DNA from: a virus | Strand: one strand, 5' to 3' | Virus genome (UHGV): UHGV-1820253 | DNA: 10,991 nucleotides | Shown: piece by piece, positions 2,784-8,196 of the stretch | How positions within the stretch are numbered: position 1 is the first letter of the stretch | Layout: every line of letters starts with the position of its first letter | Made by a program: the position numbers and the translations under genes | The notes under the pieces: model-generated | The model's database searches: none | What the model saw: the letters and a program-made list of their open reading frames with translations, nothing else | Told to the model about the DNA's origin: nothing

Positions 2784-2868
2784 TTTACCTCTAAGGTAAT
2801 TAAAAACCACATAAGACACGAAATCAATAGATTTTAGAATATTTTATTACCCAACAGGTAATTATCAA
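2784..2868 (-). promoter_or_regulatory. Putative internal promoter with two operator palindromes upstream of the nin-position cluster
   Basis: Minus strand reads TTGATA (-35, plus coords 2863-2868), 16-nt spacer, TAAAAT (-10, 2841-2846). The spacer is the perfect palindrome ATTACCcaacaGGTAAT (2846-2862). A second site, TTTACCtctaaGGTAAT (2784-2800), overlaps the RBS of the 2434..2781 gene. Confidence 0.45.
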
Positions 2869-2898: not shown

Positions 2899-3699
2899 TT
2901 ACTTGATAAATCCTGCCGCCTTTCCCCGCCTGTATTCCTCCATCAGCCACTGCGCCGGTGTTATTCCCCCAAGGGTGGCGGCGTTAGGCATGCACCCGAA
3001 ACTTCGCCCTGGTGGATGGTAAACGTCTCTCCCTGTGTCCGGAGGTGTACTCATGGGCTCTCGCTTTGCCTGTATGCTGATCACCGGATCGGGTATCTGC
3101 TGTCCGGAAGCTACCTTTTTCGCCCAATCATCGAGCAGCCTGCGCGCGTGTTTCTCAACCTCAATCTCGCTAAGCTGGCGCTGATACATTGCACGGCGGG
3201 TATCACATACGACCCAGTACATAACCGGATGTCGCCACGGGAATCTTTCGGGACCACCAGGATATAAACTTTTTTCCTTGCTGTACCGGTGAAACTCCGC
3301 CATCACATCGTCAATGGTGACGCCAAGAACCATCTTGCTGTCTTTACACCACTTGATGAATTGCCCTGGCGACGGCCAGAACGGAGACTCACTGGCGCGG
3401 GCGTGGCGCATACCAGCAGAAACCTGTTCACGGGTTCGGATCCCCCCTTCGGCAAACGCAGCAATCCACTGCTGTTTTGCAGCAACTTCCTGCTCTGGCG
3501 TCTTCAGGTTGGTTACCACTGCCGCCGGAAACAGTTGTTTCAGCTGTTTGAAAAGGGCATCAACAAGCCTCTCTGCTGACATGTTCACCACGTTGTCATT
3601 GTTGGTGTACTGATGCTCATAACCTGACATGCGAGAAAGGGCTTCTCCGTCACGGTTTTGTATCGCGGTAAAAACGTTGTTCACAAGAAATCCTCCCAT
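2899..3699 (-). CDS. Lambda P-like replication protein (DnaB helicase loader)
   Basis: Residues AAVVTNLKTPEQEVAAKQQWIAAFAEGGIRTREQVSAGMRHARASESPFWPSPGQFIKWCKD align closely with lambda P (…RQWVLAFRENGITTMEQVNAGMRVARRQNRPFLPSPGQFVAWCRE, recalled from memory). Sits directly downstream of the O-like gene. Start may be ATG 3699 or GTG 3684, the latter overlapping the O-like stop (GTGA). Confidence 0.85.
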   Translation of the reverse strand: MGGFLVNNVFTAIQNRDGEALSRMSGYEHQYTNNDNVVNMSAERLVDALFKQLKQLFPAAVVTNLKTPEQEVAAKQQWIAAFAEGGIRTREQVSAGMRHARASESPFWPSPGQFIKWCKDSKMVLGVTIDDVMAEFHRYSKEKSLYPGGPERFPWRHPVMYWVVCDTRRAMYQRQLSEIEVEKHARRLLDDWAKKVASGQQIPDPVISIQAKREPMSTPPDTGRDVYHPPGRSFGCMPNAATLGGITPAQWLMEEYRRGKAAGFIK

Positions 3700-4496
3700 G
3701 CTTCAGGGCTGTTCCAGTGCGGAACGTTGTTATCAGGTAATGTTGATTGCTTCTGTCTGCTAATCTGCAGCCGCCTTGCCAGCTTCTGCTCCCACTGTGC
3801 CTGATGGTATGCCTTACCCTCAGCCATCCAGTAAATTCTGAACTCTGCAAGTTCCTGTGCCGTTGGCAGACTGTCCAGGTAGATCCCCTGCAATGAGCTT
3901 TTCCGAAGAAAGTCATCTGATGGCTGCCATTGTTCATGCATGACAAATTTGCCTAATTGCCCTGGCCCACCAGGAGGAACAAAGTTATTCATCACGGCGT
4001 TGTTTGCGCCGGGGTCATGATGCACAGAATCCCCGTTTTTTGTCCTGCTCTCCCTCTCTTGGTTAAATGACTGGTTATATGACTGGTTCTGGATCCCGTT
4101 TTTGGGATCATTCAACATCCCGTTTTTGGGATCATTCAACATCCCGTTTTTGGGTATATTCCCGTTTTCGGTAACATTACCGTTTTCTGGTTCATTGCCC
4201 CCCTCTCGGTTGCCTTTAATGTTCCCGTTTTTGGTTATATTAAGAGAGAAAACCCGCACTCTTTTTGTCGCTCCCTTTCTCTCTCCGGTATCTGAAATAA
4301 GCCCCATTTTCATGAGCGATATAAGCCCGGCCTGCACGGTTTTTTTATTCAGGCAAGTGTCTTTAACGAGGCGTTCTATGCTGGGGTAGCAGAGGTTATA
4401 TTCATCGGCTCTGTCAGCCATCGAGAGCAGTATGAGCTTTAATGATGAGCTACCTGGATCTGTCTCCCAGGCCCAATCTGTTGCATGTCTGCTCAT
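3681..4496 (-). CDS. Replication initiator (lambda O analog): N-terminal winged-helix DNA-binding domain, Asn/Gly/Pro-rich linker encoded by iterons, C-terminal domain
   Basis: ATG at 4496-4494 with GGAG RBS 8 nt upstream; N-terminal HTH-like region (LKLILLSMADRADEYNLCYPSIERLVKDTCLNKKTVQAGLISLMKMGLI); central repeats NGNIKGNREGGNEPENGNVTENGNIPKNGMLNDPKNGMLNDPKNG coincide with DNA direct repeats; immediately upstream of the P-like gene. Confidence 0.8.
   Translation of the reverse strand: MSRHATDWAWETDPGSSSLKLILLSMADRADEYNLCYPSIERLVKDTCLNKKTVQAGLISLMKMGLISDTGERKGATKRVRVFSLNITKNGNIKGNREGGNEPENGNVTENGNIPKNGMLNDPKNGMLNDPKNGIQNQSYNQSFNQERESRTKNGDSVHHDPGANNAVMNNFVPPGGPGQLGKFVMHEQWQPSDDFLRKSSLQGIYLDSLPTAQELAEFRIYWMAEGKAYHQAQWEQKLARRLQISRQKQSTLPDNNVPHWNSPEAWEDFL
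4093..4241. repeat. Iteron array (putative phage replication origin) inside the O-like gene: six direct repeats of about 18-20 bp, core CCCGTTTTTGG..ATT
   Basis: Copies at 4093-4112 and 4117-4136 (identical, atcccgtttttgggatcatt), 4141-4160, 4159-4178, 4179-4196 and 4222-4241 (degenerate). Spacing of 24, 24, 18 and 19 bp. Lambda ori is likewise embedded in O. Confidence 0.7.
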
Positions 4497-4712: not shown

Positions 4713-4818
4713 GGTAAGCCCTGTTATTAGTATTGGGATTACGGTCATTTTGTGCTGACACAAAAAAAAGATCAACCAGATTTGGTTTTTTATTACCTTT
4801 GAGGTGCGAATAGATATG

Positions 4819-4862: not shown

Positions 4863-5093
4863 TCATGAGTAGAAGAAGTATGCCAGTTCTGCTTTTGAGC
4901 GCAGCCATTGTCTTGTTTTACAGGCTTTAAAAAGCCCATTCATCAATACTTTACCTGGCATTTTGCGCTTACCTGTTAAGTGAGTCTGGATATAGTGACT
5001 CGTCGTTCCGGCTTCCTGTGCGAAGGCTTCACGCTCATCCGGAGTAAGTGCAAGCCAGTGCTTTTTGAAATCGAAATGTCCGTTATCGCTCAT
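4863..5093 (-). CDS. Cro-like small HTH DNA-binding protein (76 aa)
   Basis: ATG at 5093-5091; divergent from the repressor candidate across an operator-bearing intergenic region; first gene of the minus-strand replication operon; HTH-like segment AFAQEAGTTSHYIQTHLTG. Family assignment is tentative. Confidence 0.6.
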   Translation of the reverse strand: MSDNGHFDFKKHWLALTPDEREAFAQEAGTTSHYIQTHLTGKRKMPGKVLMNGLFKACKTRQWLRSKAELAYFFYS

Positions 5094-5117: not shown

Positions 5118-5146
5118 GATAATAAATATTCACCCATAAGGTAACA
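5118..5146 (-). promoter_or_regulatory. Putative PR-like promoter for the Cro-like/replication operon
   Basis: Minus strand TTGTTA (-35, 5146-5141), 17 nt, TATTAT (-10, 5123-5118); an operator half-site pair sits in the spacer. Confidence 0.35.
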
Positions 5147-5193
5147 AAAATCAAGGATAGTTACCTATGGGGTGCATTTACCTGTTGGGTAAT
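5128..5193. promoter_or_regulatory. OR-like operator cluster: three 17-bp sites matching WTTACC-N5-GGTAAW
   Basis: TTCACCcataaGGTAAC (5128-5144), TTTACCtatggGGTGCA (5160-5176, degenerate right half), TTTACCtgttgGGTAAT (5177-5193). They lie between the divergent Cro-like and repressor genes. Confidence 0.5.
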
Positions 5194-5247
5194 ATTGCTT
5201 TAAATTGAATCATCTACTGATTCATATACGAGGCGATTTTCCAGAAA

Positions 5248-5832
5248 ATGAAAAGTATCCAGGACGTCCGCAGGCAAAATCTCAACGACTTGATCGACCG
5301 TGAATTCAATGGTGTTCAGACGCGGATGGCAGAAAAACTTGGAACTCAGGCAAATCTGGTAAACCGCTGGGCTCTTGGCAAGAAGGTTATCGGCGACCAG
5401 GTTGCGCGAAAAATTGAAGCTGCCGCCAATAAACCCCGTAACTGGCTTGATATCGATCGCTCGCTTTCTCAGGAAGGTTTTCAGCCTGTCGGCCCAAGCG
5501 ACATTGGTCAGCTGGCGGCTCACAACCTGGAACGCTGGATGAGCGAAAGCCGCGACCTTTCAACACAGGGAAAACTTCACCGCGCATCCGGCGTCGCCCA
5601 GGTGACAATCAGCCGCCTGTTAAACAATGAGGTCAGCGTTTCCATTTCCACCCTGGAGAATGTTGCATCCGCATTCGGGCGTCACGGCTATGAATTACTG
5701 ATTCACCCGCACGACCCTGCGACCATCAACTATGACCGCTCGCGCTACGCATTGTTACCCGAAACCGAGAAAGCAAAGATCGAAAGTTACATTGAATTTG
5801 TCATCAACCAGAACGAAAAAAACAAACAATAA
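5248..5832 (+). CDS. Tandem-HTH (two XRE-like domains) transcriptional regulator; candidate prophage repressor (CI analog)
   Basis: ATG 5248; two HTH-like segments (QTRMAEKLGTQANLVNRWALGKKV and LHRASGVAQVTISRLLNNEVSVSISTLENVASAF); flanked by operator clusters on both sides; followed by a strong intrinsic terminator; no GDSM-type S24 peptidase motif seen. Confidence 0.7.
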   Translation: MKSIQDVRRQNLNDLIDREFNGVQTRMAEKLGTQANLVNRWALGKKVIGDQVARKIEAAANKPRNWLDIDRSLSQEGFQPVGPSDIGQLAAHNLERWMSESRDLSTQGKLHRASGVAQVTISRLLNNEVSVSISTLENVASAFGRHGYELLIHPHDPATINYDRSRYALLPETEKAKIESYIEFVINQNEKNKQ

Positions 5833-5852
5833 AATCATATTTTTCAGTAAGT

Positions 5853-5876
5853 AAGCCGCCTTCTGGCGGCTTTTTT
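5853..5876 (+). terminator. Rho-independent terminator downstream of the repressor gene
   Basis: Stem aaGCCGCC (5853-5860) paired with GGCGGCtt (5865-5872), loop ttct, T6 run at 5871-5876, 21 nt after the TAA stop. Confidence 0.8.
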
Positions 5877-5888
5877 ATTGTCTACACA

Positions 5889-5967
5889 ATTACCTTAAGG
5901 GTAATTTTTTTAACTCATATCTATTGACACCAAACCAAATACGCATAATCATTACCTCAACGGTAAC
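5889..5967 (+). promoter_or_regulatory. OL/PL-like region: two operator palindromes flanking a promoter for the plus-strand recombination operon
   Basis: Perfect palindrome ATTACCttaagGGTAAT (5889-5905) and ATTACCtcaacGGTAAC (5951-5967). Perfect -35 hexamer TTGACA at 5924-5929. The nearest good -10 (CATAAT, 5944-5949) is only 14 nt away, so exact promoter elements are uncertain. Confidence 0.5.
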
Positions 5968-6140: not shown

Positions 6141-6440
6141 ATGAACGTTAATCAGCAGAAAAATCTTCAAAAAATCATGCTGGCATTCGACAAGGACTAC
6201 CGCCTGTCAGAACAGCTATATGACCGACAAGTCGAACTGATTGAGAGTATCCGGCTTCATCAACTGGCCTCAACTTTTGACGTTGTAACAGGCAAAGGCG
6301 TTCGTCAGGAAGTGCTGGAGGCCGCTAAAGACAGCCCTGAGTTCGAAGAACTAATGGATGCCTACCGGCGAGAGGCAATGGCAATTATCGCCCGCTGGGA
6401 TCTGGCGGATCAGCTTGATGGACAGAAGGACGCGGCATGA
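6141..6440 (+). CDS. Hypothetical protein (99 aa) translationally coupled to the exonuclease
   Basis: ATG 6141 with GGGAGGG 7 nt upstream (preferred over the track start at 6126); TGA overlaps the ATG of the exonuclease (ATGA at 6437-6440). Confidence 0.6.
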   Translation: MNVNQQKNLQKIMLAFDKDYRLSEQLYDRQVELIESIRLHQLASTFDVVTGKGVRQEVLEAAKDSPEFEELMDAYRREAMAIIARWDLADQLDGQKDAA

Positions 6441-7258
6441 AACCGGGAATTTATTTCGGCATCAGCAACGAAGACTACCACGCCGGTGACGGCGTGAGTA
6501 AGTCGCAACTTGACATGGTTGCCAAGAATCCGGCGCTTCTTAAATGGGTTCAGGCAGCACCAGAAGACGAAGAGAAAAAGTCTGCACTGGATATGGGAAC
6601 CGCATTGCACTGTCTGCTTCTGGAACCTGGAGAATTCGACAAACGCTTCATCGTTTCACCGAAATTCGATCGTCGGACAAAACAAGGTAAAGCTGACGAA
6701 GAAGCATTTCTTCGTGATGTGGCGGATATGGGTATTACGGTACTTGATGTCGAGCAGTGGCGAAAACTGGAGCTGATGCGTGATAGCACAATGGCTCACC
6801 CGGCTGCACGCTGGATGTTGGAAGCACCTGGTTACTGCGAAGCGTCAATGTACTGGAACGATGAAGAGACGGGTGAGTTGTGCCGAATTCGTCCAGACAA
6901 ATGGCTGAACGAGCACAACGTGATCGTCGACGTGAAAAAGGTTGCAGATATGGACCGTTTTGCACGCCACATCGAGGAATTCCGCTACCACGTGCAGGAC
7001 GCAATGTACCGCGAAGGCGCAATGAGGGTTACTGGTCAGCCGCATGGTTTTTTCTTTCTTGCCGTGAGCGAAAGCATTGATTGTGGTCGGTATCCGGTAC
7101 GCGTGTTCGAGCTGGATGCGCAGGATGTCGATGCCGGGCACGCTCTGTTCCGCCGGGATCTGAATACCTATCACGAATGCCGCATCAATGATGAATGGGG
7201 CGGTGTGGAAATCATTAAACGCCCTGAGTGGGCACGCAAACAGGATATGTACATATGA
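6437..7258 (+). CDS. PD-(D/E)xK family exonuclease (RecE C-terminal nuclease-like), partner of the annealase
   Basis: Motifs GISNEDYHAGDG, GTALHCLLLEP, IVDVKKV (D-x-K) and YHVQDAMY (QxxxY), as in the RecE/lambda Exo/RecB nuclease fold; ATGA overlaps with both neighbouring genes. Confidence 0.8.
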   Translation: MKPGIYFGISNEDYHAGDGVSKSQLDMVAKNPALLKWVQAAPEDEEKKSALDMGTALHCLLLEPGEFDKRFIVSPKFDRRTKQGKADEEAFLRDVADMGITVLDVEQWRKLELMRDSTMAHPAARWMLEAPGYCEASMYWNDEETGELCRIRPDKWLNEHNVIVDVKKVADMDRFARHIEEFRYHVQDAMYREGAMRVTGQPHGFFFLAVSESIDCGRYPVRVFELDAQDVDAGHALFRRDLNTYHECRINDEWGGVEIIKRPEWARKQDMYI

Positions 7259-8196
7259 GCAACGACATCGCAAACATCAACGCACCAGTAGACACAGCAA
7301 TCGCTGGAACTGCTGCAACTATTTTCAGCCCAGACGGCTTGAACCAACTGATGAAATTCGCCGAGGTAATGGCGCAAAGCCGCGTAACGGTACCGGCGCA
7401 CCTCGCCGGGAAACCAGCTGATTGCATGGCCGTGGCAATGCAGGCTGCGCAGTGGGGAATGAACCCGTTTGCCGTGGCTCAGAAAACCCATGTTGTGAAC
7501 GGCACGCTAGGTTATGAAGCCCAATTAGTAAACGCAGTTATCTCAACGATGTCGCCAACAAAAGATCGCATCAACTACGAGTGGTTCGGGCCGTGGGAAC
7601 GCGTGATCGGTAAGTTTGTTGAGAAAACATCCAAAAACGGCAATCCATATATTGCACCAGGCTGGACTCTAAAAGACGAAGAAGGCTGCGGTGTTCGCGT
7701 ATGGGCAACCATGAAGGGCGAGGATCAACCTCGAGTGCTTGAGTTAATGCTATCTCAAGCACAGGTAAGAAACTCCACACTTTGGGCCAGTGATCCGAAA
7801 CAACAACTCGCATACCTTGCGACAAAACGCTGGTCTCGCTTGCACTGTCCTGACGTAATCATGGGCGTCTACACACCAGACGAATTACAGGAAACGGCAC
7901 CGCGCGTTGAGCGAGACATTACTCCGCAAACGACCACTGCTGCGGGAATGAACAGTCTGATCAACGCTAAACAAGTGAAAAAGCCTGATGAGCAAACGCG
8001 TAAAGCGGATAGCCGTGATCCAGAAGAAATGCTGATGGCCTTTACCAGCGCAGCGATGAATTACAGCACTGTCTCCGAACTGGATAAAGCTTACAAATAC
8101 ATTGCACAAAAACTTTCAGATGATGACGAACTGCTGGCAAAAGCCACCGACGTTTACAGCGTTCGTCGGGAAGAATTAAACGAAACATCTATGTAA
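7255..8196 (+). CDS. RecT/Red-beta family single-strand annealing protein
   Basis: ATG 7255 overlaps the exonuclease TGA (ATGA); the track's 7228 start is a GTG inside the exonuclease gene. Similarity to RecT-family annealases recalled from memory, plus the classic exonuclease-annealase pairing. Confidence 0.8.
   Translation: MSNDIANINAPVDTAIAGTAATIFSPDGLNQLMKFAEVMAQSRVTVPAHLAGKPADCMAVAMQAAQWGMNPFAVAQKTHVVNGTLGYEAQLVNAVISTMSPTKDRINYEWFGPWERVIGKFVEKTSKNGNPYIAPGWTLKDEEGCGVRVWATMKGEDQPRVLELMLSQAQVRNSTLWASDPKQQLAYLATKRWSRLHCPDVIMGVYTPDELQETAPRVERDITPQTTTAAGMNSLINAKQVKKPDEQTRKADSRDPEEMLMAFTSAAMNYSTVSELDKAYKYIAQKLSDDDELLAKATDVYSVRREELNETSM

Follow-up and report, generated by a model that had tools for sequence, protein, structure and literature searches.

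The window analysed here, which is a stretch of 10,991 nucleotides from the virus genome UHGV-1820253, carries a repressor gene with a group of palindromic repeats on each side of it. In nucleotide comparison, the 1.8-kb stretch around the repeats showed 100% identity with 'Escherichia phage BP9' and about 98% with phiV10 and with many other E. coli Uetakevirus phages (epsilon15-like podoviruses). The gene content also matches the phiV10 early region. From its sequence we assign the window to the early region of a phiV10-like Uetakevirus prophage. The genes and signals concerned are:

2781, minus strand: ATG of the DUF1064 gene, in a DUF1064/Eae/Ead gene block downstream of the P-like gene
2899-3699, minus strand: P-like replication gene
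3681-4496, minus strand: DnaT/HTH_36 initiator gene
4863-5093, minus strand: cro-like gene (76 aa) from the list of open reading frames, divergent from the repressor gene
5248-5832, plus strand: repressor gene (Rep, 194 aa, two HTH)
5853..5872, plus strand: intrinsic terminator of the repressor gene (8-bp stem with 6 G-C pairs, then a T-run), a terminator that is annotated in phiV10

On the 3' side of the Rep terminator, two small ORFs (50 aa and 104 aa) are followed by RecE-like and RecT-like genes, and this recE/recT early operon is read in the same direction as the repressor gene. The integrase gene is at the right end of the window.

The window was searched with the pattern WTTACCNNNNNGGTAAW (WTTACC-N5-GGTAAW), allowing at most 2 mismatches, and 200 dinucleotide shuffles served as the control. 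Six matches were found versus 0.97 expected, and none of the 200 shuffles reached six. An earlier note on this DNA had described five such sites, in two clusters on either side of the repressor gene. Four of them (5129-5145, 5177-5193, 5889-5905 and 5951-5967) are among the six matches, while the fifth (5160-5176) is degenerate and the first cluster starts at 5129, one base later than claimed. All five are indeed intergenic, in the gaps on either side of ORF 5248-5832, and arms that are perfectly complementary are found at 5889-5905. The sites are not restricted to these two clusters, however. Two sites with a perfect core, 2784-2800 and 2846-2862, had been overlooked between the P-like gene and the DUF1064 gene, together with a degenerate site at 4792-4808, and still more are present across phiV10 and its relatives. 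The sites in the window, under the names used below, are:

2784-2800: promoter-proximal candidate operator of the post-replication promoter, ATTACCTTAGAGGTAAA in the minus-strand reading, 0 mismatches to the W-degenerate pattern, weight-matrix score 22.5
2846-2862: distal candidate operator of the post-replication promoter, perfect ATTACC/GGTAAT arms
4792-4808: degenerate site, ATTACCTTTGAGGTGCG, one good half, weight-matrix score 12.1
5129-5145: OR site a, TTCACCCATAAGGTAAC, 2 mismatches
5160-5176: OR site b, GTTACCTATGGGGTGCA, good left half and poor right half, 4 mismatches to ATTACC-N5-GGTAAT
5177-5193: OR site c, TTTACCTGTTGGGTAAT, 0 mismatches, the strongest OR site
5889-5905: OL distal candidate operator, ATTACCTTAAGGGTAAT, 0 mismatches, both 6-nt arms perfectly complementary
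5951-5967: OL proximal candidate operator, ATTACCTCAACGGTAAC, 1 mismatch

Two observations lead us to count OR site b as real though weak: its counterparts by synteny in epsilon15, SPC32H and the Klebsiella phage match the pattern in full, and its own left half-site does not vary in the alignment. Downstream of the cro-like gene, the site at 4792-4808 falls between that gene's terminator and the following gene. By synteny it has counterparts in phiV10 (score 15.0), Tyrion (14.8), SPC32H (13.2) and the Klebsiella phage. It is the weakest member of the motif, and its status as a candidate operator is uncertain.

Promoters were assigned from consensus and conservation, and their start sites are inferred rather than mapped. 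The three OR sites (5129-5193) are located between ORF 4863-5093 on the minus strand and ORF 5248-5832 on the plus strand. A candidate leftward promoter for the cro-like gene has its -35 hexamer, TTGATT, at 5154..5149 on the minus strand. This hexamer is invariant in the alignment of the OR region, and so is the stretch AAAAATCAA. OR site a fills the spacer and the -10 region of this candidate, and the alternative hexamer pair given by the promoter scan (5147..5119) likewise overlaps OR site a. OR sites b and c abut, 17 bp centre to centre. Site c covers the candidate -35 hexamer TTTACC (5177-5182) and the spacer of a candidate repressor-gene promoter, TTTACC-17-TTAAAT (5177-5205), whose -10 hexamer TTAAAT is at 5200-5205; both hexamers are conserved in the alignment. 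The position of sites b and c over this candidate promoter suggests negative autoregulation of Rep. With the strongest OR site placed there, either homeostatic autorepression or another promoter assignment is needed. The spacings of the OR sites (17 and 31 bp) are out of helical phase, which counts against the operator model.

Two further candidate promoters are each accompanied by a pair of sites:

5924..5952, plus strand: PL-like early promoter, TTGACA (5924-5929), 17-nt spacer, AATCAT (5947-5952), 10/12 matches in the promoter scan
2799..2827, minus strand: sigma-70 promoter of the DUF1064/Eae/Ead block (post-replication promoter), -35 TTGATT (2827..2822), 17 nt, -10 TTTAAT (2804..2799)

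The PL-like promoter precedes the 50-aa, 104-aa, recE and recT genes, and CTATTGAC is invariant in the alignment of the OL region. The distal site (5889-5905) ends 18 nt upstream of the PL -35 hexamer, and the proximal site (5951-5967) overlaps the last two bases of the -10 hexamer and covers the start-site region. The post-replication promoter follows the same template, namely distal site (2862..2846), 18 nt, -35, 17 nt, -10 and proximal site (2800..2784). Its proximal site also overlaps the last two -10 bases and, in addition, contains the Shine-Dalgarno sequence of the DUF1064 gene. The -35 context CTATTGA and the -10 hexamer are conserved in the alignment of relatives. At both promoters the paired sites are 62 bp apart, centre to centre, in every lineage examined, except for the Klebsiella OL with 63 bp. 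A spacing of 62 bp is about six helical turns and puts the paired sites on the same face of the helix. A second upstream promoter, TTGATA-16-TAAAAT (2868..2841), with the distal post-replication site in its spacer, was considered and rejected, since relatives do not keep its -35 hexamer.

The six strong sites of the window were used to build a weight matrix, and the complete phiV10 genome was scanned with it. Hits were obtained in the immunity region, close to the terminase gene and the left end, upstream of the head-module gene p06, to either side of the small gene p24 (beside the tail-fibre gene), and upstream of both the lysis cassette and the integrase gene. When the 10-base core was counted with at most 1 mismatch, phiV10 contained 14 matches versus 0.63 expected from a first-order Markov model, and intergenic DNA, which makes up 6.5% of the genome, held 12 of the 14 (binomial P = 4.5e-13). 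The remaining two 'coding' matches are located right where the annotated small-terminase gene begins, and the equivalent site in relatives is upstream of that gene. A genome-wide matrix scan for intergenic enrichment had been proposed as a check, and its outcome is in favour of the sites, with no comparable density of matches in coding regions.

Equivalent sites with the motif are present, by synteny, in phiV10, Enterobacter phage Tyrion, epsilon15, SPC32H and Klebsiella phage BUCT711. The regions of phiV10 and its relatives that have the motif in front of them are those for post-replication, head, tail-fibre/ant, lysis, integrase and terminase genes. The RefSeq record of epsilon15 (NC_004775) has seven features named 'protein_bind: repressor, lysogeny', and all seven coincide with motif matches. 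Among the sites of the window, 2846-2862 is syntenic with the epsilon15 feature 35906-35922 ('protein_bind: repressor'), and 5889-5905 and 5951-5967 are syntenic with the 'repressor' features 32616-32632 and 32554-32570, respectively. The three OR sites, the pre-lysis site and the proximal post-replication site are without annotation in the epsilon15 record, and all of them match the motif. The phiV10 record has no operator annotated.

In alignments of three regulatory regions from five lineages, the TTACC/GGTAA half-sites stand out as invariant islands while the central 5 bp vary, and the half-sites of 2784-2800 and 2846-2862 are invariant in all five. The same pattern was observed at the population level among viral contigs that encode an identical Rep (at least 80, with 58-80 contigs per comparison). 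Polymorphism was found at 5 of 80 half-site positions, at 78 of 375 other intergenic positions, at 150 of 461 four-fold degenerate sites in neighbouring genes, and at 23 of 40 central spacer positions. The half-sites were less polymorphic than the other intergenic positions (P = 0.0013) and the four-fold degenerate sites (P = 1.7e-7). In contrast, the central spacers were more variable than the four-fold sites taken as the neutral proxy (P = 0.003). These results show that the half-sites are under strong constraint.

The scan of viral contigs for Rep returned 100%-identical repressors only. By tblastn against phage records, Rep lineages were found at 42-78% identity, and all of them have the same motif and the same recognition helix. 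Neither the motif nor the recognition helix varied among these relatives, which leaves no variation from which co-variation of repressor and operator could be read. The next relative, the cI of Pseudomonas PseuP_224, shares only the N-terminal domain with Rep, and from its length and C-terminal sequence it appears to be a classical CI-type repressor. No palindromes comparable to the window motif were seen at Pseudomonas PseuP_224.

Rep matches the SPC32H repressor over its full length (PDB 5D50_A, E = 4e-42, residues 1-190) and also the C-terminal construct of that protein (PDB 5D4Z, E = 4e-20). Its layout consists of an N-terminal HTH DNA-binding domain, a central HTH_3-like domain (Pfam HTH_3) and a C-terminal oligomerisation region, and its C-terminal half aligns with the oligomerisation domain of SPC32H Rep. 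The Pfam search gave HTH families only and no Peptidase_S24 in Rep. Compared with SPC32H Rep, the identity is about 42% for the whole protein and 52% for the DNA-binding domain. Across the five lineages this domain is 52-88% identical, and the recognition-helix motif NLVNRW is unchanged in all of them. The cro-like 76-aa protein matched PHROG 35 'transcriptional repressor' (E = 5.6e-13), with no match in Pfam, NCBIfam or PDB. phiV10, whose Rep is identical, encodes an 85-aa protein that is 88% identical to SPC32H Ant, at a locus outside the window, and a perfect LexA box, CTGTATAAATACACAG, is located 22 bp upstream of this gene.

The Rep/Ant switch of SPC32H was reportedly described by Kim and Ryu in 2013 and by Kim et al. 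in 2016, and the epsilon15 genome reportedly by Kropinski et al. in 2007. According to a secondary source, SPC32H Rep binds palindromic DNA as a tetramer in which the DNA-binding pairs come from different dimers, and this tetramer is dismantled by the tetrameric antirepressor Ant (PMC9638917). The C-terminal domain of SPC32H Rep is described, in another such source, as a tetramerisation fold of the DNA-looping type (PMC9986798). The repressor of phage vB_EcoP_ZX5 is 100% identical to Rep of the window. Its overexpression abolished free phage and lowered the transcripts for holin and endolysin by over 99.9% (PMC9782041), which is consistent with, without proving, an operator before the lysis genes.

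We consider the ATTACC-N5-GGTAAT palindromes to be very probably the operators of the prophage repressor Rep (5248-5832), with a probability of about 85%. The earlier note had already proposed the two-HTH protein 5248-5832 as the protein that binds them, and this is the best explanation of the sites. That the motif is the same as the experimentally mapped SPC32H Rep operator is inferred from secondary citations and the epsilon15 record. In this model a pair of N-terminal HTH domains would recognise each palindrome, with one domain on each TTACC half-site, and the Rep homologues act as tetramers carrying two such pairs. The operators in the window would then act on four transcription units, which are the cro-like gene (5129-5145), rep itself (5160-5193), the recE/recT operon (5889-5905 and 5951-5967) and the post-replication block (2846-2862 and 2784-2800). 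At PL and at the post-replication promoter, one operator would lie on the -10 region and start site and the second 62 bp upstream. Because the paired operators are 62 bp apart on the same helix face, one Rep tetramer could grip both of them and enclose the -35 region. With the motif also standing before the head, ant/tail-fibre, lysis, integrase and terminase regions of phiV10 and its relatives, a single repressor would silence nearly every transcription unit directly, and induction would proceed through the small LexA-controlled antirepressor Ant and not through RecA-stimulated self-cleavage. A more far-reaching proposal combines a genome-wide regulon of one repressor with a fixed 62-bp clamp rule, by which one tetramer would hold the promoter in a very small loop, and with uncontacted central 5 bp that diversify, by selection or as a mutational hotspot, and tune the affinity of each site; we put it forward as tentative and rather doubtful.

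Alternatively, the protein that mainly binds the palindromes might be the cro-like one (76 aa) or a different small phage regulator, or Rep and the cro-like protein might both use them. In lambda-type switches it is the rule that CI and Cro share operators. The three-site cluster separates the cro-like gene from rep, which is read in the other direction, and the cro-like protein has the PHROG annotation as a transcriptional repressor. It could bind the same sites. However, Rep keeps its recognition helix unchanged in every lineage with the unchanged motif, the sites are credited to the repressor in the epsilon15 record, and a Cro acting in the lytic cycle is not expected to need sites before head, lysis and integrase genes. 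This explanation is thus improbable as a whole, and exclusive binding by the cro-like protein in particular is unlikely because of the late-region sites and the epsilon15 annotation.

Each site is also able to form a hairpin of 5-8 bp, and a T-run comes after 5889-5905, as would be seen if the repeats acted as RNA hairpins in processing, stability or weak termination and not as protein-binding DNA. The hairpins are weak (-3.5 to -6 kcal/mol), several sites are upstream of or across the inferred start sites, and Rfam has no family that matches the region. Moreover, at 13 or more sites per genome in five lineages, the half-sites are kept in sequence without compensatory changes, which makes a role as RNA very improbable. 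In favour of regarding the matches as a by-product of chance or composition, the intergenic DNA is rich in A+T (35-37% G+C near the site clusters). That idea is refuted by the excess over the shuffles (6 versus 0.97) and over the phiV10 Markov model (14 versus 0.63), by the synteny in five lineages and by the half-site constraint.

With Rep as the favoured binding protein, the operator set is already known in kind, being annotated in epsilon15 and tied to the solved SPC32H repressor. The Rep homologue of the window combines an N-terminal HTH with a C-terminal dimer/tetramer domain, and TTACC/GGTAA sites are found at the positions of the epsilon15 repressor features. The window shares with SPC32H the homology over full-length Rep, the gene order (rep, divergent small gene, replication genes) and the syntenic motif. 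In the close relative phiV10 an Ant homologue and a LexA box are present. With epsilon15 the window shares the TTACC-N5-GGTAA half-sites, and the OL pair and the distal post-replication site are positional equivalents of annotated features. There are also differences. SPC32H and epsilon15 have three OL sites whereas two are found here, the overall identity to SPC32H Rep is low, and Ant is outside the window.

The likeness to lambda CI/Cro is one of topology. In both cases three 17-bp palindromes lie between divergent repressor and cro-like genes, the operators overlap promoters, and beyond the repressor gene a second cluster precedes the early recombination operon. The OR/OL arrangement claimed in the earlier note is correct in this respect, but it is not of the lambdoid CI type. 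The repressor here, the SPC32H Rep homologue, differs in fold and oligomerisation and has no S24 self-cleavage domain, two of the OR sites abut without a spacer, and the OL consists of two sites 62 bp apart that flank the promoter, whereas lambda OL has three adjacent sites. The sites are also not confined to the immunity region, as those at 2784-2862 and 4792-4808 and those in the late and integrase regions of phiV10 demonstrate. The operator sequence is presumably different from the operators of lambda, 434 and P22. The further claim that the operators define the immunity specificity of this phage is not supported. The same half-sites and the same NLVNRW helix are found in phages with overall Rep identities of only about 42-45%, and half-sites of a family that is shared across the genus cannot set the specificity of one phage. 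The operator spacers, for their part, vary even among phages with identical repressors.

P1 C1 and mycobacteriophage L5 gp71 (with its 'stoperators') are similar in that one repressor acts at a dozen or more scattered sites before many transcription units. From PMC1934351 and general background, the sites of these two repressors are asymmetric, and the L5 stoperators are often inside transcribed regions. In contrast, the sites here are symmetric and almost all intergenic, and the proteins are unrelated.

These data provide a concrete operator map for a very common type of E. coli prophage, the identical repressor being present in at least 80 viral contigs, in a group whose members include the O157-converting phiV10 as well as reporter and typing phages. 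The map also corrects a lambda-based reading in three ways: induction should depend on the LexA-controlled antirepressor, Rep probably silences late, lysis and integrase genes directly, and the genus-wide half-site sequence cannot alone explain immunity specificity. Neither a fixed 62-bp module nor hypervariability of the spacers was found described in the accessible literature, which did not include the primary SPC32H and epsilon15 papers. Two modest additions to the known system are the 62-bp promoter-clamp module common to two promoters and the hypervariable operator spacers. The conserved 62-bp pairs offer a simple, testable model for how the unusual 'trans' Rep tetramer may engage DNA.

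The central 5 bp (spacers) of the 17-bp palindromic operators, the predicted binding sites of the repressor Rep, are strikingly variable. The spacers lie at the following positions of the window:

2790-2794, spacer in the pair downstream of the P-like replication gene (post-replication pair), proximal operator
2852-2856, spacer in the same pair, distal operator
5135-5139, spacer in OR
5166-5170, spacer in OR
5895-5899, spacer in OL
5957-5961, spacer in OL

Among contigs with an identical repressor, 23/40 operator-spacer positions were polymorphic, a higher fraction than the 150/461 at four-fold degenerate sites (P=0.003) or the 78/375 at other intergenic positions. Over the initial 100 nt of OR, the polymorphisms of these contigs were all confined to operator spacers. 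Relaxed constraint, affinity tuning and a mutational hotspot are the candidate causes of this variability.

The arrangement around the paired operators follows one template, which is common to the two predicted promoter regions at 2784-2862 and 5889-5967. It runs from the distal operator through 18 nt, the -35, 17 nt and the -10 to the proximal operator; the -35 lies inside CTATTGA, and the -10 shares 2 nt with the proximal operator. In each pair the operator centres are 62 bp apart, a distance kept across five phage lineages.

Seven repressor-binding sites are annotated in the epsilon15 RefSeq record, which leaves out the three OR sites, the pre-lysis-gene site and, in the post-replication pair, the proximal operator. 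The core matches at these unannotated sites were all perfect or near-perfect:

33341-33402 (epsilon15), motif core matches
24704-24718 (epsilon15), motif core match
35969-35983 (epsilon15), motif core match

In Tyrion, the annotated ORF gp39 (34059-34271) is probably a spurious call, because it spans the OL operators and the PL-like promoter.

Two recombination genes were found at 6437-8196:

6437-7258, RecE-like ORF
7228-8196, RecT-like ORF

They are separate, overlapping ORFs in the window, Tyrion and epsilon15, whereas the phiV10 GenBank record gives one fused 'recET' CDS.

An iteron-like array is located at 4093-4245, within the DnaT/HTH_36 replication-initiator gene. It contains six copies of a ATCCCGTTTTTGGGATCATTCAAC-like unit with spacing of 24 and 18 nt, and is probably the phage replication origin. 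Such a placement would resemble that in lambda O, where the origin lies inside the initiator gene.

Outside the window, in the phiV10 region 20543-20837, the small gene p24 is annotated as hypothetical. Its product shares 88% identity with the antirepressor Ant of Salmonella phage SPC32H, and a perfect LexA box was found upstream of the gene. The Bro-domain protein p23/ORF4, instead of p24, is assigned as the antirepressor in the ZX5 paper (PMC9782041), and likewise in the phiV10 record.
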